This document shows, one piece after another, positions 22,708 to 63,700 of a DNA stretch of 64,000 nt. Under the pieces are notes generated by a model. That model did not search any database and was not told the DNA's origin. It worked only from the letters and a program-made list of their open reading frames with translations. This DNA is from Azolla caroliniana (Eukaryota > Plantae > Polypodiophyta), in the NCBI GenBank assembly GCA_043228905.1, contig JBHGNT010000022.1:4402001-4466000 (forward strand), written 5' to 3'. Numbering within the stretch: the first letter of the stretch is position 1; each line of letters begins with the position of its first letter. Both the position numbers and the translations under genes were made by a program.

Positions 22708-22782
22708 CCATGGTTTTAGCCCATGCTTTTAGCTCGTGGTTTTAGCCCATGGTTTTAGCCCGTGGTTTTAGCCCATGGTTTT
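22708..22782. repeat. 13-bp tandem repeat ccatggttttagc in the LTR of I (also 39827-39903)
   Basis: About five to six degenerate copies are visible in both LTRs, just upstream of cctataaaa. Confidence 0.9.
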
Positions 22783-23089
22783 TGTATGGAGAGACCTATA
22801 AAATCCTATAGTTGGGCTTGTGTAAAGGGGGAAGGGATGTAAGTAAAATAAGAAACTTTTAATGAAAGATCTGAGTTATCCTAATGGTGATGTATCTTGT
22901 CTCGTAAAACTAAAGTCAAGGGTTCAATCTCTATATCTCAATCTCTCTCTCTATCTTTTCATCCATCTATCTATCTTCAATACTTTCTCGCTTACACTAC
23001 TAAAAACATTGAATCCTTCCAATACAGGACCTCGACAGTTCCGCCTCACGATCCGCAGGTAGTGATGGATTTGTCACGACATAATAGAG

Positions 23090-23107
23090 TGGTGAACTTG
23101 ACGTGAA
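23090..23107 (+). promoter_or_regulatory. Primer-binding site, tRNA-Trp type (2 mismatches)
   Basis: tggtgaacttgacgtgaa versus tggtgaacccgacgtgaa in L. The latter is complementary to the plant cytosolic tRNA-Trp 3' end ...TTCACGTCGGGTTCACCA (recalled from memory, not searched). Confidence 0.8.
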
Positions 23108-29100: not shown

Positions 29101-30380
29101 CGGAGGAAATGTACCGGGACGAGAGGAAACGACTGGCGGTGCAGAGCCGCAATTTCTATCTGTTACGGGACACTCTCTACCACAAGGGAGCAGATGGAAT
29201 ATGGAGACGGGCAGTCCGTAGTGACGAGAAACAAGTAATCTTACGGGAAGCACACTGTGGGGTTGCCGGAGGACACTATGCCGGGGAAGCGACGGCAAGG
29301 AAAGTATGGCAGAGCGGCTTATGGTGGCCCACGACGTTAAAAGACGCCGTCAAGTATGCTAAGGAATGTGACCTATGCCAACGAATGGGCCAGCCTACAG
29401 AGCAAGCACGGATGCCACACCAACCGGTACTTCCACTAGAGCCATTCCAGAAGTGGGGGTTGGATTTTGTCGGACCGTTCAAGCCACCGGCAATGAGAAC
29501 GGGTAATCGTTATGTCATCGTGGCAACAGATTATTGCACTAAATGGGTGGAGGCTAAGGCCTTGAGAGACAACACCGCGTCATCCACAGCAAAATTCCTG
29601 TACGAAAACATTTGGTGCCGATATGGATGTCCGATTGAGTTAATCAGCGACCAAGGAGGGCACTTCCTCGGCCAGGTAGTTGAAAGCTTAACAACGTTCT
29701 ATGCCGTGGTCCATAAACGGAGCACACCGTACTACCCACAAGCAAACGGGTTAGCAGAGTCAACCAACAAAACGCTCCAGAACATTCTCCGCAAAATCGT
29801 CAATGAAAACCGGACGGACTGGGATACAAAGCTCCATAGCGCGCTATGGGCGTACCGAACGGCATACAAAACAAGTATCCGGACAACGCCGTTCCGGTTA
29901 GCGTTCGGCTTAGAGGCGGTCATGCTGGTGGAATTTCAGGTACCAAGCTTACGGATCCAACTACGGGAACGGCTGAATGAAAAGGAATCGGAGGAAATGC
30001 GGCTAGCAGCACTATGCGAACTGGAGGAGCAATGGCTTGCCAGCATCCTACACATGGAACTAGAGCAACGACGACGAAAAGCGTTCGTTGACCGTCACCG
30101 GAAAGGTAATGAAAAGATGTTCGAAATCGGAAAGCCGGTGCTAGTATTCCAAACGAGGATGGGCAAGATGCCGGGTAAACTCCGGTTTAGATGGACAAGC
30201 CCGTATTGGCTGACATGGGAATACAACGGGTCCTATCAGTTAGGGACACTTGCCGGTGAAGTGCTAGGCAAGTGGGTCAACGGATTTAGACTAAAGCCCT
30301 ATAAAGGACCGATGCCAAGTGAAGGGACCTACGGATGTGTAAGATCACATACCATCATTAAAAATAAAATAAATAAATAA
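26010..30380 (+). CDS. pol: Pol polyprotein of J (third CCHC knuckle, aspartic protease, RT, RNase H, integrase); open frame
   Basis: Motifs CYYCRQEGHYSNQC, VIDGGSGVN, CVDYRKLN, FLDGFSGYNQI, FLDDF, VDASD..YASRKL..TEREAL, H..GH..C..C, WGLDFVGP and YYPQANGLAESTNK. No chromodomain. The listed start is not a true start, because the frame is normally fused to gag. Confidence 0.95.
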   Translation: MHDLLECRTLGSGVHHANPVCDLSIQESYNGPVRSDRYRESNRRHEQYDRDHSPGYRRHQEDYGRCYDPPRQDYRNKNKNNKKRNFKKGGHTRDPEHGTPRSQPAQNAPLTTGPTPATSNAESNNTRKEYCYYCRQEGHYSNQCPAKSYDKRPAVNMVVPEVADVQQVTTRSKGMAKEWETQEAIRKQATEWVKEANERNVADAERQKANTIGSAGGSHAENETWQALQECQITLPLGRLLQLMPRFTEGLKTVMTDGVAPPAPVLFSNPEEGPTVVDTSSPVITAIVKGHELPGTVIDGGSGVNVISLRTCDALGIHEWEPCPFWLRMADTSSARPTGLIRKLEVTIGGHTFHISAVVLQLQAQGAYPLLLGRPWLKTAHIKQNWRKNMITFRRGKAKVRVPTQPRTSNGKECTPLYAECVNMLEGLADDEEAEYLEEHPKIVPLFEIDVAEAVAPYLPQRDETEPEPDKDAIRELRQAQEALEREMAISQRVKTSQLDEVNLGSKDESKPVHIAKEMKPEDKAAMITLLTEFRDVFAWSYEDMRGLDPQLYQHQIHLGKDAKPVAQRRYRMNPNYAAKVKEEIDKLLRVGFIRPVKKATWLSPIVVVPKKNGKIRVCVDYRKLNAATITDAFPLPFTDGVLDVVAGHEVYSFLDGFSGYNQIRMHPDDQEKTTFVTEWGVFVAVVMMFGLKMAPATFQRIIMEIFGEYIPAFMQVFLDDFAVYSREKDHLQHLRLCLEKCRLYRLSLNPAKCIFGVSSGILLGHIVSKEGIAVDPDKVNAILGAPAPKTAKALSPFLGQIRWHSRMLRHLADLATPLHTAVHRTPFQWTDTEDKAYNALKVLLSQAPVVQPPDWSKEFHVFVDASDIAIGSALMQHTEPKWYRPVYYASRKLSQAEKNYSTTEREALGMIYSVTKFRHYLLGRKFSFHVDHSALLYLVSKASLTGKLARWTLLLQEFEFEIFHRPGIQHVVADYLSRLESGESGDGVSDEFPDAELFRITPETAADDTVASEDRWLTNMHQFLSTGLPPEEMYRDERKRLAVQSRNFYLLRDTLYHKGADGIWRRAVRSDEKQVILREAHCGVAGGHYAGEATARKVWQSGLWWPTTLKDAVKYAKECDLCQRMGQPTEQARMPHQPVLPLEPFQKWGLDFVGPFKPPAMRTGNRYVIVATDYCTKWVEAKALRDNTASSTAKFLYENIWCRYGCPIELISDQGGHFLGQVVESLTTFYAVVHKRSTPYYPQANGLAESTNKTLQNILRKIVNENRTDWDTKLHSALWAYRTAYKTSIRTTPFRLAFGLEAVMLVEFQVPSLRIQLRERLNEKESEEMRLAALCELEEQWLASILHMELEQRRRKAFVDRHRKGNEKMFEIGKPVLVFQTRMGKMPGKLRFRWTSPYWLTWEYNGSYQLGTLAGEVLGKWVNGFRLKPYKGPMPSEGTYGCVRSHTIIKNKINK

Positions 30381-30721
30381 AAAAAAAAAAAAAATCATTA
30401 AAAATCGAGGTATGAACGGACGTGAAAGGAAGGAGCGAAAAGGTACGTAGTGGGCATTTAAGAGCCGCCACATTACTTAATACTAAATTGGTACACGACG
30501 TGCGCATGCTCGAAAAAGGCGCCAAGACGCACAGAGAAAAAGCAGAACGCATGGAGACCTTTTTTTTTCGCGAGCCAAGAAGCACAGAAGCACCAAGGCG
30601 GTGGAAGCTTAGCAAACGCGAACCTGCACTCAGAGAACCCCCACGTTCGGAACTCTCTCTCTCTCACTCTCACTCTCATCACCACTCTACCTCGCCATCT
30701 TTCCTCGACCTCGAAGCAAAC

Positions 30722-33391
30722 ATGGAACCACAAACGCTGTCGAAAGCGGCCAGGAAATGGCTCAGGCAACACGGACTGGAGGGGTTCTTGACCATCATGG
30801 AGGCACCACCGCACAAAGAAGCCGACCGGGTCAACAAGGAGCTCGACACAGAAGTCATCACCGAGGAAGCGATCCATGCGCTAACAGGCCTTCCGGAGGG
30901 AGGTATTTTTCAGATAGATAACCCATCCTCGGAGCAACTCATCCGATATTTCGGTGAGTACTCTCTAGCCGGCAAAGGCTATCGAACGCAGGGCGGCGAA
31001 GATCCGCTATTCAGGGAGATAGCTCGAGTGCTCCATGAGTACGGCCACGTGTACCCCCGACCCCCTGTCATGCCAAAAAATCGGGCAGGGATGATCATAG
31101 CCACCTATGAAGGGATCAAGGTGGATTGGCCGGTGTTGATTGCAGACGGTTTGTGCGCGGCAATCGACACGGTACGAGGAAAGGACGGCAAGGAGGGCCG
31201 GAAGCTGTGGCATGCCGTAGCTCAGTGGATAACATTGCTCGCGCCGCCGGTCAAGACCGTCCAGCCAAAGAAGCGGCCAAGATTATCGGAAGGAAGCACC
31301 TCGAAACCCGCGTCCAAACGACAGCAGCTGCTGGCGTCGAAGGCAACGAAAGGGAAGAAACGGCTCCCAGAACCGGAGGAGGTGTCACCGATCCGACCCG
31401 TTAAGATAACCATACGGCGACCGGGACAGAAGGAACCGGAACCCTTGACGGCACAGATACATGCCGTTACCCAGGAAGAGGAAACGGAGGAGCCTGTAGA
31501 GCACCTCCAACGACGGTCAAGAAGTAGGACCGCCGGGACAGCGGGGGAGCGTTCGGACCTGCAAAAGGAAGAAACGCCCCCAACTCAACCTGAGCAAACC
31601 ACAAGGGAGGAACCGGAACCGGTGCGTATAGAACCGGCCTTGTTGACTTCTATACAAGAAGTCATTCCAACGGCTCCGGAGACGGCGAGAACCGGAACTC
31701 AACAGTCGGCGAGCCCAACCAGCACACCCAGCGGCCAAGGAGTAGAACCAGAACGGCAGATACAAGCACTCAGGCCAGACAATTCCACAGTGAACGAGCC
31801 GACCCGACCAGTACAGCAGCAAGGCACCAGTAGCATGTGGCTACGGTGGGTAGGCGAGCAGATCGCCGGAGCGGTCGAGTACATAGAGGCGGAGGAGAGA
31901 GCGCACCATGAACGGTTGCTCGTCACAACCGTAGATCTAGAGACGGCCCGGTCCAGAATCCGGAGCCTTGAACAAGACTTGGACAGGGTCACAAGGGAAA
32001 TGGCTCAATTGGCTTTGACAACACAAGTCCAAGCACCGGTGACTCCGGGCAATGTACAGAATAAAGCGTCAGATCAACATGTACATAGCAATCAGACCCC
32101 GGCAACGGAAACCGTTCCGGAGAGAAATGCGGCACAAGCCCAAGAGCTTGCGGACTTAAAGGATGAGCTAGCTGCCCAAGAAGCGCTGAGGAGCCGCGAA
32201 AGAGAGTTGAAGACGGCAGCGGAGGCAGAACTCAAAAAGACTGCTGAGAATCTACGCCGGGCCGAGGAGAGCTTACGAAAAGGCCACCAAGTGTACGACC
32301 GGCTCAAGGAGGAAAAGGAGAAAATGCTGCAAGAGAATGACAGGCTCCGGAGAAACGCCGAAACAGAAGTAGAGCGCCTGAAAGAGGAACTCCGGCAGCT
32401 AAAGGACCGGGAGGACCGGAACCATCGCCAGATCAACGGCAAGCTCAAACAAAAAACGGAGGAATTTGAGCACTTGCACCAGGAGTATAAACGGTTGCAA
32501 ACGGAGCACAAGGAACGGACGGATGAGCTTCGGCAAGCAGTTGATCGGACCGCAACGGCATACGCTAATGAACAAGCGGAAACCAGAAGATGGTTGGAAG
32601 AGGCGGAGAAGGTTCAGACAGAGCTCCTCAGGCAACAACAGGCGGAAAGAGAAAGAGCGGCGGAGGTACTACAGAGGCTGCAGACAACATATCAAGGGCA
32701 GCTGACGCGCTACAGAGAGCAGGCGGAGGATACGGCTAATCTCATCAAGCAGTTGAAGGAGGAACGACAAGTTGTGGAAAGTAGAGCGCAAATGGGAGCA
32801 AGTCGCATCCAGGATATCATGCGGGCCTGGTTGAAACAGACTAAGAGCTTGATCGACAACGGTTCCGTCAAATGGTGGACCAAGTGGGCCCCGAACGCGG
32901 CGGAACTCCAATTGCTCCGGGCCGACGTAGAGAACCGGCGGAAGGAGGGAGATGATTGCTATATGCTGACTTCCGAAGACTTCACAGGCATAAGAGATGA
33001 GCTGGCCGAAGACTTTCAAGCCTTGGCAGAGGACCAACTAGGGCAAGTTCGGCAACTTGTAGCTCAGCTGGACGACGACAGGCATGAGGCGCAGATCCAG
33101 TTTGAAAGCTACGAGAGGTCGCGGATCCGGGAAGAGAAAGCACGAGAACCGGTTACGGTCAACCTCAGTGATGAGGAACCGTTACTGGAAGGAGACCGGA
33201 CCGGAAGCAGTCAAACGGGGATGCCAGAGTCAGAGAAACAAACGGAGCAGCCGCCTATAGAGCAACCAGAGCAGTCTCAGTCCCAACCGCAACCACAGCA
33301 GCAGCAGCAAGCACAGCCGCAACAACCACAACCGGAAGAACACTTGGAAACTCTGGAACAAAGTATTTTGGACAATTTGGGTGAACAATGA
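30722..33391 (+). CDS. Extra ORF of J (~889 aa from ATG 30722; frame open from 30422): globular N-domain, basic NLS-like segment, disordered linker, long coiled coil, Q/P tail
   Basis: An uninterrupted frame between pol and the 3' LTR. It contains IHALTGLPEGG and GIKVDWPVLIAD, then PKKRPR..KRQQ..KGKKR, and a long E/R/K/L/Q heptad-like region. Confidence 0.85.
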   Translation: MEPQTLSKAARKWLRQHGLEGFLTIMEAPPHKEADRVNKELDTEVITEEAIHALTGLPEGGIFQIDNPSSEQLIRYFGEYSLAGKGYRTQGGEDPLFREIARVLHEYGHVYPRPPVMPKNRAGMIIATYEGIKVDWPVLIADGLCAAIDTVRGKDGKEGRKLWHAVAQWITLLAPPVKTVQPKKRPRLSEGSTSKPASKRQQLLASKATKGKKRLPEPEEVSPIRPVKITIRRPGQKEPEPLTAQIHAVTQEEETEEPVEHLQRRSRSRTAGTAGERSDLQKEETPPTQPEQTTREEPEPVRIEPALLTSIQEVIPTAPETARTGTQQSASPTSTPSGQGVEPERQIQALRPDNSTVNEPTRPVQQQGTSSMWLRWVGEQIAGAVEYIEAEERAHHERLLVTTVDLETARSRIRSLEQDLDRVTREMAQLALTTQVQAPVTPGNVQNKASDQHVHSNQTPATETVPERNAAQAQELADLKDELAAQEALRSRERELKTAAEAELKKTAENLRRAEESLRKGHQVYDRLKEEKEKMLQENDRLRRNAETEVERLKEELRQLKDREDRNHRQINGKLKQKTEEFEHLHQEYKRLQTEHKERTDELRQAVDRTATAYANEQAETRRWLEEAEKVQTELLRQQQAERERAAEVLQRLQTTYQGQLTRYREQAEDTANLIKQLKEERQVVESRAQMGASRIQDIMRAWLKQTKSLIDNGSVKWWTKWAPNAAELQLLRADVENRRKEGDDCYMLTSEDFTGIRDELAEDFQALAEDQLGQVRQLVAQLDDDRHEAQIQFESYERSRIREEKAREPVTVNLSDEEPLLEGDRTGSSQTGMPESEKQTEQPPIEQPEQSQSQPQPQQQQQAQPQQPQPEEHLETLEQSILDNLGEQ

Positions 33392-35645
33392 AGGGGCCGA
33401 GAAGGGTTCGACGTACAAGGTACTGTCCCACGGGCGTGCCATGTGTTACCGGCCGGCAAGGAGTCCAAAATACGGAGTGAAGGAATTAATTAAGTATGGT
33501 TGTAAATAAGCATAGTATGGACGGACGGACTGGAAACGGTATGCCGTTCCAGATCCGGACGGATCCCGAATAGGTGCGATAGGCACCGTTTTGTACTACG
33601 GACCGGAAACCTATTTAAAGGCCCGGAGCCCATTGTAATCGCAGCGGATAATTAATAGAGCGTATGGTGTTTATACTTCTGTGTTGATTTCCGTTCTGTA
33701 CTTACTGTTATATCTTACGCGTGTAATTAACAAAAGCGCTCTAATCGTGTAACCTACGTAAGTCGGTGTAATCGTTGAGTCATAATCCTATGCCGTAATC
33801 ACCCTTTGGTGAAGTGTCTCCGCGACACCTTGTGTTAGGCCTTGTCCGGTCAGAGAATAACATGGAAGGGCAAGAAAACCCATCAAAAAGACATGAAATA
33901 AGGAGCGCGAAAAAGAAAGAAGATGCAGAAACGAGTCGAGATTTACAAATGGAAGAAGGAGTCTCAAACTGGAAAGGGGAGTCGGGCAAACGAGTCAAAC
34001 AAACGGTTCGGTCCGTGAGGGTTGATGTCGAAAACCCTGCTCGAAAGACGAGAACTATGCCTACCTATAAGCTAAGGTCGGACATAGAGCAGACGACAGA
34101 TCTGAAGAAGATTCTCAAGGAACATGTTCTTGATAGCCATGTGCTCGGCATTACAAAGAAGGAGTAAAAATCCATAACGACGGCAAGGGATGACGTCGAT
34201 GAAGATATGTTGGACAACCACTATACTTGACCTCATTAGGCACGAGCGACAACGGAGACGATGGTGAAGATCGTGGAGAAGAAAGAGACTGTGGTAGCCT
34301 TGATTGACCATGGCTTGGAGATCAACCTCATGTCAACCGAGTTCTACAAAAACAGGAGATGGCCAATTAACACAAACCACGGATGGAATATTTGAGTGGC
34401 AACAAAGGCCACAGAGGACTTGTATGGAGCTTGTGCCAATGTTAAAGTCACAATTGGGGATGTGGAGATGGATCAACACTTCTTCGTGCAAGAATCGGCT
34501 TCGCATCCTGTCATCCTAAAATGAGTTGGAAGAGAGAATCTTAAAATGATCAAGCCAGGTAGGAGCTGGGTTTTGGCCGACGGTCTTCGAGTGCGAGAAA
34601 AAAGGAAAAATTGATTCAGAGGATCTAAAACATGTTGATTGGAACATCGACGAGTTACCGGATGGTCAGATGTAGTCGACGATAACACAAGCTTTGCGGA
34701 GGTTGTGTGTGACAACTATGAAGCTCTTGTCGAAGAGAAGAGGAAAAGAACCAGTGAAGAAGATGGGACATTAAAGCGTCCCAACACGAGGAACGCAAGG
34801 AAAGAAGGGCAAGCCCAAGCTACGCCAAGAAAAGAGGTTGGAGAAACAAGCATGATGCCCAGTGGATCGGGCCAACCTGCTCGGATGGAAGTCGATGAAT
34901 CAAAGAAGAAAGGAAAAGAATGAGCAACACCGACTTACAAGCTAAGGAGGGACATAGAACAAACAATTGACTTACAGAAGGTCCTTGAGGAGAAGGTTTT
35001 AGACAGTCATGTCGACCTTACTTTGAGAGAATTGCTTGGGATCGCGAAGAAGGAGTTCCATGATACTATTGTGGACCTTATTAAGTGGAAGCGGCAACAA
35101 TCTGATGAAGAGGAGGTGAAAACAAGTGCCATAACCATGGCAAGATCGGAAGAGGAGGAGGAAGAAGAAGTGGTGGCAGATAGCTATTACTCTCGACCTC
35201 ATTAAGCAAGAGTGACAATGGAGACATCGGTGAAGGTCGGGGAGAAGAAAGAGACCGTGGTAGCCTTGATTGGCCATGGCTCAGAGATCAACCTCATGTC
35301 GACCGAGTTCTACAAGAAAGGAAGATGGCCAATTAACACAAACCACGGATGGAAGATTCGGGTGGCAAGAAAGGCCACAGAGGACTTGTATGGGGCTTGT
35401 CCTAATGTTAAAGTCACGATTGGGGATGTGGAGATGGATCAAAAATTCTTCGTGCAAGAATCGGCTTCACATCATGTCATCCTAGGACAACTGTATATCA
35501 CATCATCCTGGATGGAGACCAAGGTGTTCGATAATGGAGCAGCCTTCGCATTACTCAAGAGTCTTGACAATCAAAGTTCTGTTCAATTCCTAATGGTGTG
35601 ATCTAATCATGAAAGAAATCAAGATAGTCTTGGGGCCGAATCCTC

Positions 35646-35708
35646 AAATTTTTAGAGCGGACTATTGAAGCATGGGGCACAAATAGTCCGAGCAATCACA
35701 AGTCCCCA
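35646..35708 (+). promoter_or_regulatory. Putative -1 programmed ribosomal frameshift signal (slippery heptamer plus pseudoknot) in element I
   Basis: A_AAT_TTT_TAG ends the protease frame, and the -1 frame runs open into the ORF at 35730. Stem cggactatt/aatagtccg; loop tgggg pairs with downstream cccca. Confidence 0.8.
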
Positions 35709-38700
35709 CAAGAAAGTAGAGCGCGTGGATTGCAAGGAGAAGCAACATGTGTCACACCTAGTGGTGCATGTAAACTAGTACTACCCAACAAAAAGGACAA
35801 GCGTCGGATACAACACTTCGAGAAGATGCTTAAAGAAGAAAACATAATAGAAGAAGAAGAATTCGTGACTTATATTATGGAAGAAGCCTCATTTAACGAC
35901 ACCATCGGCGAAATCGAGGAAGTCGTGGACTTGAGCTATCTTCACAATCAACACGTGATTTTGGTTAACTCTATCAACATGTACGCTATCATTGATGAAT
36001 ACCATCAAGGCATCTTGATGGAGGAAGCTGGAGTCAACACAAAATATAAAATGGTGCACAAGAAGATCAAACCAATTGCGGTTCTGCTACAGAAAGATAG
36101 CTGGCAAAAGCTGAAGGAAGTTGCAAAAGATCCAGGTTTAAGGAATCCAAAGACAATTGGTCATGTCTTCATTGACAAGACGAAAGGGAAGTTACGAGTT
36201 GGAAGGGAGTATTTTCTCCTCACTTAAGAGGAGCGAATGTTCCGCAGAATGCTTGAAAGACACGAGAAGGCTTTCACATTTATTCCATAGGAAATCAGAT
36301 GTGTTGATCCAAAGACAGTAGAACCGATGGTGATCTTCACGGTGCCACATGTGCCTTGGAATTTGAAATCGATACCGGTTTCGAAAGCACACCTACCGAA
36401 GTTGATTGAGTTGTTAAAGGAGAAGGTGAATATGGGAATTCTGGAATCGTCGAACGCTCCTTATTCTAATAGGTGGTTCATGGTGCCAAAGAAGAATGGA
36501 TCATTGCGATTCATCGAAGATCTTGAACCCGTCAACAAGGTGACAATTCGGAATGCCGGAATTGGTCCGAGTGTGGATGAATTTGCTGAAGCGTTTGGGG
36601 GCCGGTCCATCTACTCCATTCGTGATCTCTATTGTGGATACAATCAATTCCAGTTGGCGATCGACAGTTGTGACATTACAACCATGAGGACTCCGATCGG
36701 GATTGTACGAATGTGTACCTTACCTAAAGGTGCAATGAACTCGGTGGCTCATATAATGAATGCCATGAACAAGGTCTTGAAGGATTGCATCTCGGGCATC
36801 ACAATGTCATTCTTAGATGATATTCCGATAAAAGGATGTTCGGATGAGGAGAAGGATGAATCTAAAGATAAGGAAGGGTGTAGAAAGTTCGTCGTGGATC
36901 ATATGAAAGATTGCGAGAAGGTGCTCCAAAGGCTCGAAGATGCGAATTTGACATTTTCGGGAGAAAAATCCGCATTCGCGCAACCGGAGATCTTGGTGAT
37001 AGGTCACTTGTGTGGAGCATACGATCGGAAGTCTTCACCTTCCAAGCTGAATGCGATCCATGACATGAAAGAAGAATGTGTAACCTAAACAGAGGTTCGA
37101 AGGTTTCCTGGAGCATGCACGTTTTATCATATCTGGATACCGCACTATGCTCATGTCGCGGAGTCATTATATGGATTGTTAAAGAAACGAATGAAGTTCG
37201 AATGGCGAGACGGGCATAAAAACACAATGTGAAGATTGAAGAAACTACTTCTTGAAGCTCGAGCACTAAGAAAGGCCGACTATACCGAAGGGAAGCCGAT
37301 TTATGTGACTGTAGATACAAGCCCAACCGGAATCCGGTGGGTCATCAACCAAGAAGGAGAAGATGATGCGCGGTATGCCATCCGGTTCGGAGCAAAGGTT
37401 CTCAACGAATGACAACAAGGATACACCCAAGTCAAGCAGGGACTTTGGGGTATTGTGTCTGCAGTGAAGATGGATAAAGACTACCTGATCGGGTCGGAAG
37501 TGATAATCGAGACAGATTGTCTCCCAATCCTTGGGATGATCTCAAGATGTGCGACACCAGATCTAACAATGCTAAGGTGGATTGTCTATATCAAGTCTTT
37601 AAACCCAAAGATCCGCCACATTGCAGGAAAGAAGAACGCCATGGATGACATGCTGTCGAGGGCAAGATTTGAGAATGAAAGTGACTTGGTTTGGGAAGAT
37701 GAAGACGTCACCCTCTACTTCTTCAAGATGGCTCTACTATCACCGGAAGACAAGGGTTGCTAACCCTCTATGCCTTCAACGAGAACGAGTACGAAGGAGA
37801 GTGGTTACTAATCGGCAGATTCTTAAGAACAATGATGGCAGACGCTTCGTTGACGAAGGAGGAGGCTCTACGAATCCAGAAGAAAACTTATCAATACTTC
37901 CTGAAGGGAGGATACCTCTGGCGACACCCAAAGAGAAGGATAGGAATGCCACGTCGAGTGGTGGTGAAGAAAGAAGAGCAAGTGATGCTGATGAAGGAAT
38001 TCCACGAGAGTCTTTGGCCAGGTCATAGAGGAACATGGGCGACGTTCCAAAAATTGAAGGAGAAGTACTAGTGGCCAAGCATGTACAAAGATGTCCTCCA
38101 TTTCGTGTCCACATGCGAAACTTTCCAAGTACATTCTAACATACGTCATTGTGATGAATTACGGTCGACATACCCACTCACCATACACTTCAAATGGATG
38201 GTGGATCTGGTCTCCATGCCAATGGGAGTGGGGCAAATGAACTACTTAGTACTGGCAAGAGAAGATTTGACAAATCAAGTGGAAGGACGGGCCTTGGCAA
38301 ATAAGATGACGTCAACTGTTTGGAAATTTCTACTCGAAGAGGTTGTCTACCGATACGGATGTGTGGGGAAGATAGTGGTCGACCGAGGGGAGTTGGATGC
38401 ACACGAAGCAACGAAGCTCTTCGAATGACTAGGTGTGAAGGTCTCCCTCATGATTGCCTACAATATAGAAGCGAATGGGAAGATCGAGCGAGGACATGGA
38501 CCAATCGTCAAAGCCATCGTACGAGCATGCAACGGTCGAGTCGGGAACTGGCCACGACTATTTCCCTATGCCTTGTGGGCCTATAGAACTACACACAGTT
38601 CAGTGACAGGCTATACGCCAATAGAGCTTATGTATGAACAAAAGCCAGTAATGCCCATCGAAAGGACGATCATCTAATGGGTAGCGATACCATGGGAGAA

Positions 38701-39010
38701 CGAGATGAGCCGAGAAGAATTATTAACGGCACGGATAAGGTAGCTTGAAAGAAGGCCTGAAGATTTAGAAAAAGCACGAAAGATGATGGAGGCAGCTTGA
38801 GTGAAGAACAAGATTCGGTTCGAAAAGACACATCGATTGCATCCCAAGAAGATCGAAGAAGGAGATTGGGTATTGGTCTACGACAACAACCTTGATAATC
38901 AACAAAGGACAACAAGAAAGTTCGCAAGAAGATGGTTCAGACCGTATGTGGTGACAAGTGCCAATGACAATGCCACATACCACCTTGCGGAGCTAGACGG
39001 ATCAGGACGA
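35652..39010 (+). pseudogene. pol (RT-RH-INT) of element I, multiple stops and frameshifts
   Basis: ORF fragments at 35730, 36327, 37455, 37757, 38081, 38435 and 38801 carry RT, RH and INT motifs. Confidence 0.9.
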
Positions 39011-42000
39011 CGTGCAGTTTGGTGGGTGTGGATGTCGTGAAGATTTTCGGCAATGGTGTAAAAATTGCGAGGAACATACAAAATCGAGTGTAGTTCTTCA
39101 CACACGATATGAAACAATAATAGTAAAGATACTATTTTAGATTAGTTTAATTTCTTGGTATGAAAATATGGATGTCATAAAGAGCTTCCGAATGCATTTT
39201 CTACATGTGAAACGAACAACTAAGTGTCAAGTTATGTGAGTGTGAAGTTTGAGAAGAAGAAGAGGAAAACAAAACTGTGAGATATCCCACATAGATATAG
39301 CAATATCAGGACTCCAGAGTACATAAGTAGAGCCATATCTCTTTTATATCTATGTGTTTAGAGTACATAAAGGTTGTGGGTTCTATAACTTAGAGGAATG
39401 GATGTGGCCAAGTTATTCAAATAGGCTTTTGGACGGATGGCACTGGGCAGACGGATGAGACCGGATCGGATCGGTCGGGACGAACGAACGAAAATTCATC
39501 GAGTCGGTCAGATAGGGTGATCACGATGCACGGTGTCTTGAAGATTTCTCAGTGTGAAACGAACAAAATCGTCTATAGGTTCCATCGGTTCATTGGAGGT
39601 CGACTGAAGGTGTAATATGCAGTTAAACATTTATAAATACAAGACTAAAGCCTTGTAAAATTTTGTGTTTATGGGGTGTAAGTAAGAATTTCAACATTGC
39701 ACCTCCAAGATAGGAGACAAATTACTTACCACTAAATCCACTATTCAGTGCTTTAGAATTTGTATATTTTCTTTTCATATTTAGTATTTTGTAGGAAGCA
39801 AACATATAGAAACCGTGGGCACAAAACCATGGTTTTAGCCCAAGGTTTTTAGCCCATGGTTTTAGCTCATGGTTTTAGCCCCTTCGTTTAGCCCATGGTT
39901 TTTGCATGGAGAAACCTATAAAAGCCTATAGTTGGGCTTGTGTAAGGGGGGATGGGATGTAAGTAAAAAAAGAAACTCTTAATCAAAGATTTGAGTTATC
40001 CTAATGGTGATGTATCTTGTCTCGTAAAACTAAAGTCAAGGGTTCAATCTCAATCTCTTTCTCTCTCTTCATCCATCTATCTATCTTCAATACTTTCTCG
40101 CTTACGCTACTAAAAACATTTAATCCTTCTGGTTCAGGACCCCGGCGTTTCCGCCTCACGATTCGCACGTAGTGAAGGATTTTTCACGACACCGGGCATT
40201 GTATCGGTTGACGGAGAAACCGATGTTGTACTTCACCTTGTACACCCATCTGCATCTGATTGACGTTACTCCCTTCAGAACGTCAACCAGATTCCATGTT
40301 TCGTTTTCCATGCATCTCTTCCTCAAAAGCGGCATGCCAATTTGCATCGTTTGCCACTTCTACATAGCTCTCTAGCTCACGGATTTCCGCCACCTTTGTC
40401 ATGTATACATAATGATGCACCATGTAGTCATTATATCCTTATCGAACTACAGGATATGTCTGGTGGAGAGATTGGCGCAATTTCTACTCTACCGATTTGA
40501 TGGTCCTCTTGGCCGACTCCGACCTCTTCTTTGGAGGTCCGTCTTCATGCTTTCGGGAGTTCGATTTGCTCCGATCCAACTCTTCCTTGTCTGTTCCATA
40601 CTCCGGCATCTTCATCTTTCCTTTCTCCTTGCGTGTAAGCTGTCTCCTCGGTTTCCGACGCGGGGACAACACGACCGAGTTTCCACTACTCGCAGGCTCA
40701 TCATCCCGTTGGTCTTTCCGACTCAACTCTTCATTCGGCCCGCTCAGCCGTAATGAGATCAGACTCTCTTCTAGAGCTCTGATTTCTTCTTCGTTCAGAG
40801 GCATTTTGGCCTCATTGACCTCATTCTCAGATATCAAAATGGAGTTGTCGGGGGTTAGAGACGAGGGCAAGTACCATGACGCCGACTCATCCAACACGAC
40901 ATCTCAACTCACCCGAACTTGTTTGGTTCGGGGGTTATAACATTTATAACCCTTCTGCTCATTTGAGTAGTTGATGAGAATGCACTTCTTGCCTTCTCCT
41001 TCGACACATGCACATAGGCAATGCTGCCGAACACCCTCAAGTGTCCCTATTAATAATTAGGTAATTAATTAGGGTTAATTGGTGACTAATTATGTGAGTA
41101 GTTAAGCAGCAAAAGATTATGTGATATGTGTGTGAGAGGAAGATACACTTACGAACAATAATGTAATTGGGGGATGATTAACAAGAGTGTAGCTAAAGAC
41201 CTTTCCTATATAGGAATTAGCATCATCAAAATAAAAAATACCCACAATGAGGTATATATACATCTCATGTGCAAAGGCGCACATGTGTGAGTAGAATATA
41301 GTTACAAACGTGTAAGTCCTATATTAAATGAACATGGGAGTGGAGGATCTACAATGTATCTCACTCAAGTACAAAATCCTATTTAAGGCTTTAAGGTCAA
41401 CATACTAACTAGATTCTATCTAGGTAACTACTAAGTTACGTGTGTTGATTAGCTAACTATCTCTAGTTGAGCTTGATATCTCAACACAGCCTCTCAAGGT
41501 CAAGTGTGAGGAGTCTAATGTTCGCTTTGGATTCCGTCGGCTTTGTCGGCTTCCGTATGGCCTTTGGCTTTCTTCGGCCTTTTCGAGGCAATCTCGGTTC
41601 CTCCCCCTCAAGTCGGTGACAAAGGCTTGTAGTGTGAAATGGGTGAAGGCCGACTGCTTCCATCCATCATGGGGCATGAGCCACTTTTGTAGAGCTCTCG
41701 GGCTATGGTTCGGCCACTACCTTCATCGGGAAGGCATAATGATGGGCCATATACTCGTTGTAGCCGAGCTGAGTGATCGGGTTCTTCTCTCGAGATGAGC
41801 ATCAAAGTTTTTCTCTCTCCGATGTGAGCGCCTTCTTTACTCTGGGTGTCCACATGATGGGTACACCAAACTCACTATCGTTGGGGTGGTTGACTTTGTA
41901 TTCAGGCATCTTCCCTTTGCCTCTGTCTGATTTTGGCCGTGACATGCTTTGGTTGTGTGAAGGCTCGGGTGGTCCACTTAGATCAATGGAGCTTGGATTG

Positions 42001-56155: not shown

Positions 56156-56583
56156 TGTCACAGACACACCAAGCACGGACTAGGATGGAGCACAAATGAC
56201 AAGGCTACGAGGACCTTAAGGAGCTAGGAACGACATAAGAGAATGAAGATAGAGATGAAGAAGGAGAAAATATGGAATGAAACGAGAATACTAGATTGAT
56301 GTGTCAATGACTGGTGTTGTTCACCTTGAATTCCTTCAAGGTGAACTCAACTATTTATACTAAGTGGCATGCATACTTGTTGCACACATGTGATACAATA
56401 GAGCATGTAGGAAGTAGGTACGCATGCATGTGCCAAGTTTTAATAATACAAGGGAGAATTTATGCACATGATGCTAGCTAAAACCTATAATGAGGAAGTA
56501 TATACATGATTATATGCTAGATGTGTGGTTAACACATAACACTCGATTATAACATGGTCATGTCAAGAGTTCGAATCTTGACA
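56156..56583 (-). mobile_element. Solo LTR (428 bp) of a family not otherwise seen in the window
   Basis: TGTCA...TGACA termini and a perfect TSD cacat/cacat. It interrupts M at TSSMC|LRFG. A TATA-like gtataaatag lies on the minus strand. Confidence 0.9.
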
Positions 56584-57317
56584 CACATACTCGAGGTGCC
56601 TTTCAAATATCAGAGTATCCACATGCCCGCGTTCTAGTGCTCTTTTCCGGGATTGCTCATGTACAGACTCACCATTTCGACTACATATCCAATATCCAGT
56701 TGGGTACACACCATTGCGTACATCAAGCTCCTGGATAGCTTGCAGTTTCCCGGGAGTGTCAATCCGACCGGTGTCGTGAAGATTTCCGGCTATAGTGTGA
56801 AACCGGGGTGGAATAGGCAAGTCGGTGGTGTGCAACATGTGCACATGTATACTAGGATATGGTGTATAGAAAGAGAGGGGAAATTTTTGTCCCACATTGT
56901 AAGGTCCCTCCCTCCTTGGGCTATAAAAGGAAGGGAGGGGTCACTTATGAAGGGGTTGCCTATTTTGTGCGAGTAAGGTATACCACTTAGTCTAGGGTTC
57001 TCCCTCTTCCCATTTCGTTTTAGGGTTAGGGTTTCGGTTAGGGTTTTCTTCTTGGGTTTCTCTTTAGGGTTTTCGGATAGTCATTTTGGTGCGGCCATGG
57101 CAGCCACCATTGTTGTAACCATTCGTTGTTTTAATATAACTTGTTGAGCATCTTGCCTCCGCCGATCCCTCCTTCGATGTCGTGGTCTTATTCTTTCCTC
57201 TTCTCCTCTTGAGCTAAGCCTCCATATCATGTCCTATTCTTTCTCCTCCACTCCCTAGTCCAAGACCCCCGTGGTCCCGCCCCTTCTACACGCACGCGCG
57301 TAACAACGCGACATCTT

Positions 57318-57335
57318 TGGTGAACCCGACGTGAA
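57318..57335 (+). promoter_or_regulatory. Primer-binding site complementary to the tRNA-Trp 3' end
   Basis: tggtgaacccgacgtgaa, 4 nt after the 5' LTR end. Confidence 0.85.
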
Positions 57336-57350
57336 GGGTGGCAAGGGAGC

Positions 57351-60300
57351 ATGGAGATGGAAGAAGACTTGGACTTCGAGGAGATGATGGCAAAAATCGG
57401 GATGGAAGCCGGACGGAAGATGGCGAAGCGAGGTGCGGCTCAACAAGCCGTCGAAAGGGTGGTCAATCGAGTCGGCCAATTCAACGGGGACGATGTCCCG
57501 AGGTTCTTGGAAGCGTACGAGGCCGAGATGGCGAAAGGGGGCGTGGACGAGGAGATGCGGCTAGAGTATTTTCCTTGAGTGGCGGCCGCATTGGTGCACA
57601 AGGAGGTCAAGGAGCTACGAGAAGCTCACGAGTCGTGGGTGTCCTTGGAGGTAGCCCTATTGGAAGCGTGCGGATACACGAAACCGGAGTGAGTATGCCG
57701 GCAACCCGATGGGGAGCGGTCGGCAACAACGTGGCCCGCGAGCGGCAGAGAAGAGAGAGCGGCGAGTGAGTACGCACTACTGCCGGAAGAGAGCTCAACG
57801 CAAAACGGTTCGGAGGAGCTCGACCTAGAAGCGCTAATATGAGAGGCATGCGAGCTTGTGAAGGCGAAAATTTGAGCCGAAGAAGGGCTTGTTATGGAGA
57901 CGGGCCGGAGGCGATCGGAGGATGTGGAGGAAGAAGCCTCCCTAGACGTAGAAGACGGGGCCTATACGGAGGCCGGGAGAGCGTACGATGGCGAGATAGG
58001 AGAGGGTGCGGAGCAAGCGACCCTCTTGCCTTGCGGTGAAGGGACCGGTAACTACGGATTCGGGACATGGCGGCCCGAAACATCGAGTGAGGAGCGGACA
58101 AGCGGCGGTGCCGCGACCTTACACACACCGGTCCTAGAGACTCCGGCATCCGGCCCGAGAGCCGGTGTGAGACCTAGAGTGACGGATGGTGGCGGCGGCA
58201 AGGCGGGCAACCGAGACGACGGCATGGGAGAGATGGTGGCAAGCGTAATCGAGGTTTGCGGAATCGAAGATGGGGTAGCTGTGGACAACGACGACCGGAC
58301 GGAAGCGGCTACTGACACAACGAGTGGCGGTGCCGGGTCCTTACCCACACCAGTCCTAGAGGCTCCGGCGGCCGGCCCGAGTGCCGGCGTGAGACCTAGA
58401 GCGACGGGCCGTGGTGGCGACAAGGCGGCCTACCACGGCGACGAAGAGAACGAGGAAGAGATAGCCACGGACCACGACGTCCGAACGAAGGTGGCTACGA
58501 ACATAGCATCGACGAGTAACGATATCGGGACTTTTCCCACACCTATTCTAGAGACTTCGGCAGTCGGCCCCGAGAGCCCACGTGAGACCGGAGAGACAGA
58601 AGGTGGCGGCGGCAAAGCGGACGATCGAAACGACGACGAGGAAGGTCGTAGCGGACGGAGGCAAGACCTCTCGACACCGAGACCGGAGACTACGGCGGTT
58701 GCGCTCGAATGCCAACATAAGACCGGAGAGAAGGGCGGTGGCCGTGAGGAGGTGTGGCCCGGAGCGAACACGTAGGAAAATGAGGACGCGAGGCCCGGAA
58801 CAGGCATATACGAGAGGACCGACGGAGAGGTCGGGAGCGGCAAAGAGGAGAGAGTCGGGAACCGACCCAACCGGAAGATGGACCGGTCGATAATCCGACA
58901 TGACCGGAAGACGACGCGGAAGAACATTGTAGCGGGGTCTGGTCAACCGGGCCTGAACTGAAGAAGAGTTGGCAAGGTCGGATTTGTTCGGACAAACATC
59001 TACCGGCCGGTTACGATTACGGAAGGGAGCCGACCTAACCGGAACTCGATCGGCCGAGACCGATCCGGGCGAAGGCTAAGTTGGCACGGTTGGAGGTCGA
59101 GGCGAACGGGCCACAACACCCGGTGGGAGCCGGTGAGCGCGAGAAGGAAGCTAACCGGGCACGGTGATTACGGCTTGGCAGAAGACCAAGAGCGAGAGGA
59201 GCCCTCCACATCTATCCTTGAGACTTCGGCGGTTGCGGATCAACATAAGACCGGAGACACAACGGGTGGCGGTGAGGAGTCGGAAACCGGAACTGATGAG
59301 GCCACTGGAACGGGTACCCGGTGCGTGAAGACGGACGAGCACGGCCAAGACGGCAAGCCGGAGTCGAAAGGGGCTACGGCAAGAAAGGACGAAGAGACCG
59401 ACGCGGAGGTCGGGTCTACGACGGATGAGGCGCGTAAAACGGAGCATGCACTACGGCCAGCGAAGGGCCAAGAAGTAAGCATGCAACCGGAAGAGCGGCA
59501 ACGAGTGACCGACAACGGTGGACCAGTCGAGCCTTTGAGAGACAAGCACGTGGCGAGAGACGAAGCCGTAAGGTGCCGAGATCGGCGGATGGGTGGCGAG
59601 AGCGAAGGATGGTGCGCGGAGAACAACGGGGTACACACCGGGAAGAGAAAACGCAGCGGCTTCCCGGAGGACATACAAGGCCAAGCAGGCCAAGAGGGCG
59701 CAAGTGGAGGCGAGGCGGTAACGAGAGCCTCGAGGGACACCGACACCGAGGTCGGGATGACGGTACGCTCTACGGCGAGAGAGCACGACGGGCAAAGGAG
59801 AGGCAAGGAACGTGGAATGGGGTCGCCTAAGGGCCAAAGAATGAGCACATATTTGGGGGACAACATCGGCGCACGAGAAGAGCCTATGGAAGGCAAGCGC
59901 GGAGCAGGAAGAGTCGACACGCCGAGGTGTTCGGCATGCGGACACGATAAAACCAAAGGAGGAACATATGCGGCACGAAAAGGGCGGAATCCGGAGTACG
60001 ATCGGAGAGTTCAGGAGCGCACCCGGAGAACATACGAGCCTTTGCGAGGAATGCGCGCGGCGAGAGACGGAGCGGTGAGGTGCCGGTATCAGCGGATGAT
60101 CGACGAGCATGAAAGGCTATGTCTTGAGAACCGGAGGAGGTGCGTGAAGAGCAACGGGCTACGCGCCGGGAAGAGGAAGCACGGCTTCCCGGAAGGCATG
60201 CGAGGCCAAGTGGGCCAAGAGGACGAGAGTCGGGATGAAGCGGTAACGGGAGTCGCAAAGGACATTGACATGGTGGTCGGGATGACGGTACGCTCTATGG

Positions 60301-60770
60301 CGAGAGAGCACGACGAGCAAGGGAGAAGGAAGGAGCGCGTAATGGGGTCACGTAAGGACCGAAGAACGAGCACGCATTCGATGGACGACAACGACGCACG
60401 GAAAGTGCCTACGGAAGCCGAGTGCAGAACGAAGGGAGTCGGTACGAGGTGTTCGGGGCGAGGAGAAGGTCGAGCCGGAGGTGGAACACACGCGATACGC
60501 GAGGAGCGGCACCCAACGAGCAATCGAAGTAATCGGGGGTCTAACCGGAGGACATGCTCGGTGAGCGAAGGAAGGGAGACCGGATCGGCAATGGTGTTCG
60601 GGATGGCCGGTCGAAGAAGAAGGTGCATGCGCCGTACATGGCGGATCGGATGGAGCCGACGGTTCGGGGAAACGCGGTGGACGTGGTGGATCGGATGGAG
60701 TCGGCGGGTCGGGGCCGGCAAGACAGATCGGCGCCAGCAAGGGACCAGCAAGGCGGTTGGGTGTCGGTAA
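57351..60770 (+). pseudogene. Single long frame of L: Gag N-terminal domain plus repetitive disordered extension (~1140 codons, six internal stops)
   Basis: ORFs 57351, 57894 and 59133 share one frame, with stops at 57576, 57690, 57840, 57873, 58773 and 58959. AVERVVNRVGQFNGDDVPRFLEAYEAEM aligns with AVDRVVELEGQFDERNITKFLDSYGREM of I. Confidence 0.72.
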
Positions 60771-63700
60771 GGCGAAAGACCCGGTTGATCACCATCGCCG
60801 AAATCTCTCACCTTTTTCCTTTCTTGGCACATACCGGTGGATGTGCGGTTTGGTGGGGGTGGATGTCGTGAAGATTTCCGGCTATAGTGTGAAACCGGGG
60901 TGGAATAGGCAAGTCGGTGGTGTGCAACATGTGCACATGTATACTAGGATATGGTGTATAGAAAGAGAGGGGAAATTTTTGTCCCACATTGTAAGGTCCC
61001 TCCCTCCTTGGGCTATAAAAGGAAGGAAGGGGTCACTTATGAAGGGGTTGCCTATTTTGTGCGAGTAAGGTATACCACTTAGTCTAGGGTTCTCCCTCTT
61101 CCCATTTCGTTTTACGGTTAGGGTTTCGGTTAGGGTTTTCTTCTTGGGTTTCTCTTTAGGGTTTTCGGATAGTCATTTTGGTGCGGCCATGGCGGCCACC
61201 ATTGTTGTAACCATTCGTTGTTTTAATATAACTTGTTGAGCATCTTGCCTCCGCCGATCCCTCCTTCGATGTCGTGGTCTTATTCTTTCCTCTTCTCCTC
61301 TTGAGCTAAGCCTCCATATCATGTCCTATTCTTTCTCCTCCACTCCCTAGTCCAAGACCCCCGCGGTCCCGCCCCTTCTACACGCACGCGCGTAACAACG
61401 CGACACCGGTTTTGCATCCGACATGTTGAACTGCTGAAGCACCTGTGTCACATACTCTTCTTGTGACAACCACAATAGCTTCTTCTTCCGGTCCCTCATG
61501 ATGTGCATCCCTAAGATTTTTCTTTCCGGACCAAAATCTTTCATGGAGAAGGTCCGGTTCAAGGCCTTCTTCAGCATCCCGATTTTGGTTCCATCCGGTC
61601 CGACAATCAACATGTCATCCACATACAGGAGTATCAGGAAATCGCCTCCATCAATTTCTTCACAAACACGCAGTGATCGGCTTGCATTCTGTGGTACCCT
61701 TGATCGGTCATGAAGGAGTCAAACTTCCGGTACCATTGCCGGGGGGCTTGCTTCAATCCGTATAAGCTCTTCTTCAGCCGGCACACCAGGTGCTCATTCC
61801 CTTTCTTCTCAAATCCTTCCGGTTGATGCATGTAGATCTCTTCCTTGATGTCGCCATGTAGGAATGTCGTCTTGACGTCCAATTACTCTACCTCGAGGTC
61901 CATGCTTGCCACTATGCCCAATACCGTCTGGATGGATTTCATCTTTACTACCGGGGCAAAGATCTCATCGAAATCCACACCTTTCTTCTGCTAGAAACCC
62001 TTCACGACGATCCGAGCCTTGTACCTCGGTGGATTTCTGGCGTCTCCTGGTTTCAGCTTGTATACCCACTTATTCCGGAGTGTTCTCTTTCCTTTTGACA
62101 GCTCCGTCAATTCATATGTGTGGTTCTCATGCAGGGAATCCATCTCGTCCTGCATGGCACAAGTAACCACTTGCGACTGTGGGTGTTTTTCTTTGCTTTC
62201 TTGAAGCTTTCCGACTCCCCCTCATCAGTAAGCAACACGTGCTCGGTATCCGGGAATCTCCGAGGGCTCTTCTCTCTCGGAGAGGATATCTCTAACCTTG
62301 GTTTTTGGCAACCGGTTCCTCCGTCTGTTCCTCATCCTCATCTGATTCAGGATCTTGTCTGTAGTGTCTTCTTCTTCTTCTTTGGTCGGTTCGGTTTCTT
62401 GTCCGAATTCAACCGGTTCGTCGAGTGTCATCTGGTTACCGGCTAACATTTGGTTTCCAACTGGGTAAATCCTTGTGTCCTCAAACTTTTTCTTCGTCGA
62501 TTGATCTGGAGTCCATCATCTTCTTCTCCGACTCCCATTCGGCAATGGTCTTGTCTTCCATGAAGACTATGTCCCGACTCCGGAACACCTTCTTGTCAAC
62601 GAGATCCCACACCCGGTACCTGAACTCATCATTGTTGTATCCAAGGAATATACATGGCTTGGACTTCGGATCTAGCTTTGCTCTAGTCCTTTGCAACATG
62701 CACATATGCGAGACAGCCAAACACCTTCAGATGCCGGTAAGACACATCTTTACTAGCCCATACTTTCTACGGTGAGTCTCCTTCCAAGGGTGCTAAGGGT
62801 GATCTTTTTATCACATAGGTCTTCATCATTAGTGCCTCAGCCCAAAACGTCTTAGCTAACTTGGCATGTTCATCCGTTGAGCCAGCCCGTTCAATTCCAA
62901 CGTCTTCGGCATGGTGAATTCGAGCCGGATTCCCTTCGATCGGCAGTACTCCTCGAACTGCCCCTGGTATTATCCTCCATTATCTGCTCGAATCGCCTTT
63001 AGCTTCCGACCGGTTTCCCTTTCCACTCTCGCGTGTAGTTCCTTGAAGATAGATAACACCTGATCCTTCATCTTTAGCAGAGAGACCCACAACTTCCGGC
63101 TGTGGTCGTCTATGAACATCACGAAGTACTGCAATCCGGCATGTGACTTTGTGTCCACATGACACACATCGGTATGCACCAGCTCCAGTGGTGCATTCCA
63201 TCTCATCGGTGGTCTTGACCGGAAGGAGGTTCAGTTTTGCTTGTCAACCAAGCAGTCGGTGCACTTCTCAAGTTGCACGTCTTTTACCTCTGGAATGAGG
63301 TTATCTTCGGCAAGTCTTCTCATCCTCTTCTGACTCATGTGACACAACTCACCGGTAGTGTCGGATGCTACGTTCGCTTCTTCTCGGCATATCTAGGCAT
63401 GCATCAGATAGAACGTGTTGATCTTCTGGGCTCGAGCCACGATCATGCTTCCTTTGGTGAATTTCATGACTCCGTTCCGGATTCTACCTGTGTAGCCTTC
63501 ATCATCTAGCCGACCGGCTGATATCAGGTTCAACCGAACCTCCGGAACGTGTCAGACTTCTTTCAACAGCACTTTGCATGCAGTTGATGTCGTCAACAAC
63601 ACATCTCCTATGTCGACAATTTGGCATGTACCTTCATTACCCATCCAGACACAACCGTGATCTCTGGCTATGTAGGATGAGAAGCATTTTCGGTTCGGTG

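Follow-up and report, generated by a model that had tools for sequence, protein, structure and literature searches.

A young, pol-less LTR element with Phygy-type marks and a kilo-codon filler frame in Azolla caroliniana

Element L in the window

The sequence analysed here is a 64,000-nucleotide stretch of the genome of Azolla caroliniana (assembly GCA_043228905.1, contig JBHGNT010000022.1, positions 4,402,001 to 4,466,000 of the forward strand), which is referred to below as the window and is numbered from its first letter. Toward its right end, at 56772-61405, lies L, an element of 4,634 bp that is bounded by long terminal repeats (LTRs) and that contains a Gag-like N-terminus and no pol. 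A preliminary description of the window had proposed that L is a Gag-only satellite mobilised by the enzymes of the family of a second element, I, which lies further upstream. H1-H5, L, M and N3 are family labels coined in this analysis, H1 being the family of element I; numbers such as L027 and P0004 denote individual genomic loci and public proteins, respectively. The features of L are as follows.

56768..56771, plus strand: left target-site duplication (TSD) CCGG, of the NCGN type
56772..57313, plus strand: 5' LTR of L, 542 bp, with a U3 tip of the I-like allele and a U5 end of the H3 type
~56922-56928, plus strand: TATA-like box in the 5' LTR
57318..57335, plus strand: primer-binding site (PBS), 18 nt, 4 nt past the LTR, complementary to the 3' end of tRNA-Trp(CCA)
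57351..57680, plus strand: N-terminal helix of Gag followed by the N-lobe of the capsid (roughly codons 1-110), with one stop at 57576 in the window copy
57681..60770, plus strand: filler tail continuing in frame for about 1,030 codons, rich in G/A and built from repeats, terminating at 60768-60770
57690, 57840, 57873, 58773 and 58959, plus strand: premature stops inside the filler tail of the window copy
58098..58742, plus strand: internal repeat block 1, with 124-nt and 69-nt units at spacings of 222, 192, 414 and 135, each a multiple of 3
59521..60446, plus strand: internal repeat block 2, with spacings of 525, 507 and 528, also multiples of 3
60629..60714, plus strand: W/R-rich end motif, present as two 41-nt copies at a spacing of 45 and conserved in its nucleotide sequence
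60785..60863, plus strand: 3' untranslated region (UTR), 80-82% identical to the post-pol stretch of I-family elements
60786-60788, plus strand: in-frame stop opening the 3' UTR, at the position of the pol stop
~60852-60863, plus strand: polypurine tract (PPT)
60864..61405, plus strand: 3' LTR of L, 542 bp
61406..61409, plus strand: right TSD, CCGG

The two LTRs are 99.26% identical, with 4 differences and a Kimura two-parameter distance (K2P) of 0.0074, so that the recent movement read from them in the preliminary description stands. The PBS matches a tRNA-Trp gene of the same genome (35 pattern matches, one of which was confirmed with ARAGORN). Such matches occur in tandem arrays with a spacing of about 0.9-1.2 kb (G000:C8 17796786-17823392; C5 10108756-10110539; C300 30338-32121), and a tRNA-His lies on the opposite strand 165 bp from the match at L121. 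L itself sits within a Copia-type element on the minus strand (window 55189-56771 and 61406-64000), which is 77% identical to window 44175-46630, where the frame carries RVT_2.

Copies of L and the search for pol

L is a real, young, multi-copy, pol-less LTR element with Phygy-type marks, and it is very probably non-autonomous. When the genome was searched with the interior of L, 68 matches were obtained from the 40 best of 4,480 candidates, and both full LTRs were present in 22 of the 33 L loci examined, with an LTR divergence (K) of 0 to 0.024. The possibility that L is a single-copy deletion derivative is ruled out by these many copies with paired LTRs. An exact 22-mer of the L LTR occurs 144 times in the genome. 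Among the 22 complete copies, all but one measure about 4.1-4.8 kb; 17 of the 22 are flanked by an exact 4-bp NCGN duplication and none by a 5-bp duplication, while in four others the TSDs are off by one C>T or G>A change and the last runs into another interior. Copies of L are often nested in, or host, other Phygy-type elements (L197/L198, L205, L214/L215, L220/L221, L239, L241/L242), as is expected if NCGN targets are dense in the CpG-rich interiors of these elements.

As the preliminary description had stated, L is without pol: no pol domain was detected in it by Pfam, blastp or tblastx. Elements that combine L-type LTRs with pol would contradict the proposed satellite, and among the junctions examined no L-type element has a complete pol of its own. 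Specifically, pol was found upstream of none of the 30 common-type PPT and LTR junctions of L that were examined (31 found), all of which are preceded by L sequence, and upstream of none of nine 3' junctions with the I-like tip (among 30 examined of the 119 LTRs with that tip). All 15 L-type LTRs that are followed by a PBS (among 30 examined of 144) open into L- or M-type interiors. Ten pairs of L-type LTRs that lie 7-16 kb apart, taken as candidates for a pol-bearing element, proved to be nested insertions. The sole L-clade LTR pair with pol sequence is the following chimera.

G000:C3 ~5106558-5112424, minus strand: chimera L196, with L-clade LTRs, K 0.053

In L196 the LTRs enclose the gag, the protease and the start of the reverse transcriptase (RT) of family H3, and within RT the sequence changes to the filler tail described below. 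This chimera is single-copy among 40 scored.

The interior reading frame

In the window copy, the frame that begins at 57351 contains 6 premature stops and ends at 60768; over the whole interior of this copy, this frame has 9 stops and the other two have 33 and 40. The frame runs uninterrupted for 959-1,101 codons in seven other copies of L. Its overall length is about 1,000-1,150 codons, about 90% of which is filler built from repeats. The alignment to Gag ends at about residue 113, and no C-lobe, zinc knuckle or protease is present, while both capsid lobes are retained in the Gag of family M and in P0004. The preliminary description had called L Gag-only and similar to large retrotransposon derivatives (LARDs), a label that overlooked the open tail of about 1,000 codons and the loss of the capsid C-lobe.

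A structural model of the H1 Gag (mean predicted local distance difference test score, pLDDT, of 84; 11 sequences in the alignment) matches the N-lobe of Arc at residues 41-110 (Z 9.9, root mean square deviation (rmsd) 1.6, 66 aligned) and the C-terminal domain of PEG10 at residues 112-218 (Z 8.4, rmsd 3.2, 91 aligned). A Foldseek search with this model gave nothing at E 0.001 or better, the top rows being Arc and Copia capsids, and a sequence search of the PDB with the H1 Gag gave no relevant match. None of the L protein, P0004, P0029 and the M Gag was assigned to a Pfam family, and the leads from an Atlas search with residues 1-180 of L are all under 0.9 and mostly Gag-like.

The eight listed repeat spacings in the tail are all multiples of 3, and copies of L differ by the in-frame loss of one unit of repeat block 2. 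At its end, the frame of L027 stops 75 nt from the LTR; in H1, H2 and H3, pol stops at a distance of 71-73 nt. The stop of L027 falls inside the stretch shared with the 3' UTR of H1. L019 is a Gag-less variant with an in-frame start; because it is single-copy, as judged by its exact junction, it gives no evidence that Gag is dispensable. The idea that the tail is decayed gag or pol of a helper was rejected, since blastp, blastn and tblastx against 7 autonomous copies matched the 3' UTR alone.

Probable selection on the frame

Variants were compared among 26 copies of L, with L019 (no Gag) and L021 (no start match) excluded, and with L098 excluded from the merged indel count. Tail variants shared by at least three copies comprise 135 non-synonymous, 54 synonymous and no stop changes, and private variants 491, 234 and 23, respectively. 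Stops therefore differ between shared and private variants (0/189 vs 23/748, Fisher p 0.008), and the ratio of non-synonymous to synonymous changes does not (p 0.38). In the shifted frames of the tail, 9 and 11 shared stop gains are found. Net indels of at least 4 nt are in frame in 25 of 32 cases (p 3e-7) vs 1 of 7 in the LTR. L027 has no stop in its frame despite 28 hypermutable CGA codons, and its other two frames contain 34-35 stops. The private changes, at 0.0101 per site, fit the post-insertion decay of CpG sites, for which about 0.010 is predicted from the LTR rate (7.2% at CpG vs 0.64% elsewhere) and the density of CpG in the interior.

Selection thus very probably acts on the open frame of the tail. 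No constraint on its amino acids was detected by codon position, dN/dS or class of replacement. Substitutions at codon positions 1, 2 and 3 number 876, 1135 and 1118 in the tail and 134, 187 and 310 in the N-lobe, as counted in 14 more divergent elements against one common reference, the pairs being non-independent. The dN/dS of the tail is 0.56-1.27, that of the shifted frames 0.37-1.14 and that of Gag and Pol controls 0.09-0.37, and replacements relative to public homologues are conservative in 18-27% of cases in the tail and 44-67% in the controls. The N-lobe was found to be under purifying selection when the dN/dS check suggested in the preliminary description was applied to the Gag of L (0.15-0.31 relative to family M and 0.32-0.51 within L).

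Element I and the autonomous families

The second element of the window and the insertion that it contains are located as follows.

21891..40191, plus strand: element I, an old, broken Phygy-type copy of the autonomous family H1, with LTRs at 21891-23081 and 39033-40191
24315..33862: younger gypsy element interrupting element I, with LTRs that are 99.5% identical

Element I has an LTR K of about 0.096 and contains stops, frameshifts and the nested insertion. Since it is old, broken and interrupted, it cannot have mobilised a copy with a K of 0.007. It also has an internal duplication of its protease region (window 34226-35484; 293 bp, 89%), and neither the end of its integrase nor its 3' UTR remains. 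The nested gypsy has a pol frame of 1,465 aa followed by a second frame of 991 aa without a Pfam match, and ahead of its 3' LTR there is apparently no purine tract but a CCA-ending stretch in its place.

The likeness between L and I that was noted previously is real: the LTR tip, the terminal CGACA, the Trp PBS, the PPT region and the CCGG on both flanks of each element were all found. The first 31 nt of the L LTR are 87% identical to the LTR of element I and 94% identical to its H1 relatives, and the N-terminus of Gag is homologous to that of the I family, as claimed (34% over 94 aa, E 8e-13). Beyond the features noted previously, L has in common with H1 the ~79 nt that precede the 3' LTR, a stretch lost from element I itself; over the final 80 nt of the interior, identity is 80-82% to H1 vs 61-69% to H2-H5.

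However, the ends of L do not point to a single family. The I-like 31-nt tip is present in one of the 22 complete L copies listed and in 119 LTRs genome-wide, and in the other 21 listed copies the second half of the tip is H3-like. Over its final 35 nt, the LTR matches H1 at 46-51% and H3 at 66-86%. Of the junctions compared, 13 of 34 from L and 3 of 27 from H3 have one identical terminal 22-mer, which none of the 12 from H1 has; the end of 3 L junctions resembles the commonest H3 allele. In a study of pol-less gypsy families, conservation of both LTR termini, a common PBS and overlapping activity were used to connect parasite and helper (PMC9744471; here and below, statements on published work refer to the available parts of the cited papers). 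Between L and the family of I, the U3 tip is conserved (94%) and the U5 end is not (46-51%), while the same PBS and overlapping activity are found for H1 and equally for H2-H5. Judged from these sequences, the U5 end and the chimera point to H3, and the 3' UTR and one U3-tip allele to the family of I.

The shared cis signals are common to at least five autonomous families. The junction of LTR end and PBS occurs at 5,008 sites in the genome, compared with none for a reversed control. The first 42 junctions on contig C1 comprise 22 of H3, 13 of L/M, 2 of H1, 2 of H4 and one each of H5, N3 and an unassigned type; pol-less families thus account for 14-15 of them. Note that this sample is positional, taken from one contig end, and gives no estimate for the genome, and that family H2 came from an RT search and not from the sample.

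In the autonomous Phygy-type elements, which we regard as candidate helpers, a Gag-protease frame is followed by an RT-RNase H-integrase frame that fills the interior, without a chromodomain match. In L032, L040 and others, Gag-protease and pol lie in two overlapping frames and the RT active-site motif is FLDD; the overlap suggests a programmed frameshift. The nearest named relatives of their RT are proteins of the liverwort Riccia and the fern Adiantum (full-length matches at ~55-68%). The Phygy clade has been described as having a 4-bp NCGN TSD (100%), a tRNA-Trp PBS (81%) and a size of 7.7-10.0 kb (PMC6317226). The present elements agree with this clade in TSD (4-bp NCGN), PBS (tRNA-Trp) and domain order (gypsy order without chromodomain), and the size of the I family is about 7.8 kb. 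The CCGG that L and I have in common is therefore explained by a clade-wide preference of the integrase for NCGN, which in combination with a Trp PBS is the signature of Phygy.

Trees of Gag place L and M in one old, pol-less clade (17 rows, support 100/100, branch 0.93); in the 115-aa tree, L081, L086 and L113 are on artefactual branches caused by frame breaks, and L108 was left out, and the 250-aa tree is a quick one. In a quick tree in which the L/M group is represented by its two-lobe M members, a clade of this group with H1 is marginally rejected by the approximately unbiased (AU) test (p-AU 0.039), as is one with H2 (0.041), and the best tree places the group with H3 with weak support (36). 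The pol-less family whose Gag is truly closest to I is, as far as these trees can tell, N3 and not L: the N3 Gag (L106) is the sister of the Gag of element I (support 98/87). The comparison of ages and the search for intact helpers that had been suggested did yield copies of H1 in which pol has long open frames and K is 0.01-0.04; H2-H5 are young too, however, and since copies with a K of about 0.01 or less exist in all five autonomous families, insertion age singles out no helper. The proposed pairing of L with I as dedicated parasite and helper is accordingly not upheld, as I is broken, the shared signals are clade-wide, and the U5 end and the chimera point to H3.

Filler in other Gag lineages

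Eight unnamed public homologues (30-57% identity), which may be assemblies with collapsed repeats, have open frames of 624-1,518 aa, and five of the eight end in a PPT or at an LTR start. The unit of repeat block 1 is also present in families M and N3, and the W/R-rich end motif is present in all filler-bearing families. The filler repeat, at 73-81% nucleotide identity, and the end motif lie downstream of an I-type two-lobe Gag in N3 (L106, P0023, P0029, P0030, P0032), the end motif lies downstream of an H2-type Gag-protease in P0031, and the filler tail lies downstream of H3 sequence in L196. In P0005 and P0006 it is the N-lobe that is missing, and the C-lobe and filler are kept. In the end motif, one Gly codon is found in 69 of 85 haplotypes, and there are 10 non-synonymous vs 6 synonymous variants, in a search that favours conserved rows.

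These arrangements raise the possibility, which we put forward tentatively and consider somewhat doubtful, of a transferable 3' filler cassette that turns autonomous Phygy elements into parasites. Template switching would replace pol, together with part of gag, by a neutral open frame, expanded by repeats, that ends at a borrowed pol stop. Such a cassette would have been grafted onto at least two Gag lineages that spread, L/M and N3 (derived from I), and in single instances onto a 5' half of H3 (L196) and one of H2 type (P0031). If this is true, the RNA of the cassette resembles a normal mRNA to decay surveillance, and coding sequence is kept for its translatability and not for its protein.

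Proposed mechanism and alternatives

We propose that L is a pol-less Phygy-type parasite that uses the enzymes of several helpers, and that its frame is kept open so that its RNA escapes nonsense-mediated decay (NMD). L would be transcribed from the TATA box in its LTR and translated up to the stop near the PPT, and its RNA would be co-packaged into particles of autonomous Phygy-type elements. Priming by tRNA-Trp, reverse transcription and integration at NCGN would then be carried out by the helper enzymes, and template switching among co-packaged RNAs would swap LTR tips and graft the tail onto new 5' halves. A stop just after the N-lobe would give a 3' UTR of more than 3 kb. With the filler frame open, translation would instead end beside the 3' LTR, and NMD would be avoided. 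Avoidance of NMD is likely the reason for the open frame; we favour it because, according to a report on plants, viral RNAs whose 3' UTRs are long are restricted by NMD and a single-ORF (open reading frame) virus escapes it (PMC5031192). Taken as a whole, this reading is in our judgement evenly poised between holding and failing.

Several observations weigh against it. The stop-to-LTR distances were read on DNA and may differ from the real length of the 3' UTR; contigs of three runs cover the stretch, and none of them is on record as RNA. Three of the 26 copies (L006, L008, L190), which are not mutual nearest neighbours, carry a frameshift deletion of 19 nt, so that this deletion either recurred or was inherited; of the 10 shared indel events, 2 are out of frame, and many of the in-frame indels lie between repeats that are already in frame and thus are not independent. 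Six stop gains are each common to two copies; we read them as recurrent CGA>TGA changes, but this is not proven. The window copy, with its 6 premature stops, has the most of the 26, and many frame breaks occur in copies of the sister family M, the comparison of shared and private variants covering L alone. Finally, the end motif could be a protein or RNA signal, and L196, being one copy only, could stem from two deletions in a nested pair.

An alternative reason for the long frame is that about 1,000 codons of filler hold the nascent N-lobe on its own RNA via the ribosome, so that the N-lobe joins a helper particle and drags the L RNA in (cis preference). A tether of this kind would account for purifying selection on the N-lobe although L alone cannot form a capsid, and for a tail of which only openness and length are required; the co-translational nucleation of particles described for Ty1 is a precedent (PMC12786077). 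We consider it unlikely, since P0005 and P0006 keep the filler and C-lobe without the N-lobe, N3 has both lobes and a shorter filler, and a tether would not require the stop to lie at the distance of the pol stop from the LTR, as it does. We likewise consider it unlikely that the tail is instead a functional disordered protein region, serving as a spacer, as a condensate former or to poison capsids, with its length and charge being important and its sequence not. Its composition is steady (69-73% G/E/R/S/T/D/A/P in L-type proteins), its first half is acidic and its second half basic, and the end motif recurs in all filler families. Against this, the composition follows from the T-poor strand (12% T), the length varies from about 600 to 1,500 aa, substitutions in the tail show no third-position excess, and non-synonymous variants of the end motif, with its largely constant Gly codon, are as common as synonymous ones.

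It is distinctly improbable that L is a dedicated satellite of the H1 family. The last 80 nt of the interior and the I-like allele of the U3 tip favour H1, and H1 copies with long open pol frames overlap L in age; the last 35 nt of the LTR, the terminal 22-mer, the excess of H3 over H1 among the 42 sampled junctions (22 vs 2) and the H3 sequence in the chimera speak against it, as do the marginal rejection of a clade with H1 and the young copies of H2-H5. Very improbable, and already largely refuted, is the view that the long frame is an unselected by-product of a T-poor strand and in-frame repeats. The T content, the repeat spacings and the frameshift shared by three copies are compatible with such an origin, but in L027 the other two frames of the same strand have 34-35 stops and its own has none, shared stops are depleted in this frame alone, and homologues of ~50% identity are also open.

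Comparison with known systems

Gag-only LTR parasites are already known, and L is best read as a parasite similar to TR-GAG and Sabrina. What is unusual is a kilo-codon frame that shows clear marks of selection against stops and frameshifts and none of selection on its amino acids, that is fused to half a capsid and that ends at the stop of the helper. In the literature searched, which mostly did not include subscription papers, no account was found of such elements with a neutral filler frame of kilo-codon length. If the avoidance of decay is true, L offers a natural means of testing whether non-autonomous retroelements of plants are limited by RNA surveillance, and a class of long public 'hypothetical proteins' (P0004-P0011, P0023-P0032) is explained.

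TR-GAGs (PMC4350172) resemble L in that a single ORF with Gag is enclosed by LTRs, PBS and PPT, that protease, RT, RNase H and integrase are lacking, and that they occur as many dispersed young copies with no close autonomous partner. L has the LTR pair with PBS, PPT and TSD, none of these four enzymes and at least two copies; its one ORF with Gag similarity covers the N-lobe alone, followed by about 1,000 additional codons. In TR-GAG1 the Gag, of 433 aa, includes a zinc knuckle, internal duplications are absent and the TSD is 5 bp long (PMC4350172), unlike L with its 4-bp NCGN TSD, its N-lobe only and an ORF of ~90% filler reaching the PPT. We do not file L as a TR-GAG because it exceeds their size limit (less than 4 kb, vs 4.1-4.8 kb for L and 4,634 bp for the window copy) and lacks a whole Gag. 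LARDs are likewise longer than 4 kb and non-autonomous (PMC4350172), but their interior is non-coding, whereas that of L codes, with open frames of 959-1,101 codons in 7 copies; L is therefore not a LARD. The Phygy clade was defined from autonomous elements of Physcomitrella, and the survey, as described, filtered out elements without a polyprotein (PMC6317226), so that pol-less members such as L are not described there.

The closest system is that of Wilma, Sabrina and WHAM (PMC9744471), in which long-lived pol-less gypsy families are found. These families are tied to a helper only by the PBS, the LTR termini and a few motifs, as is L, and LTR exchange as a means of host switching, akin to what is proposed here, was suggested for RLC_Angela (PMC9744471). 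Unlike L, Sabrina_SA and WHAM retain an intact Gag-protease and Sabrina variants encode short proteins; the available text reports no long neutral frame (PMC9744471). Moreover, one helper fits five criteria in that study (PMC9744471), whereas the ends of L match two helper families.

Non-autonomous LTR families of sugar beet (PMC13570524) also resemble L in their Gag remnants, short internal duplications and template-switch chimeras. They belong to angiosperm lineages, and selection on the frame is not reported in the accessible part of that paper (PMC13570524). Their mobilisation is argued to be decentralised and not to depend on one partner (PMC13570524), as we propose for L, and the mixed LTR ends of L bear on the question of whether such parasites use a single helper or a pool of helpers.

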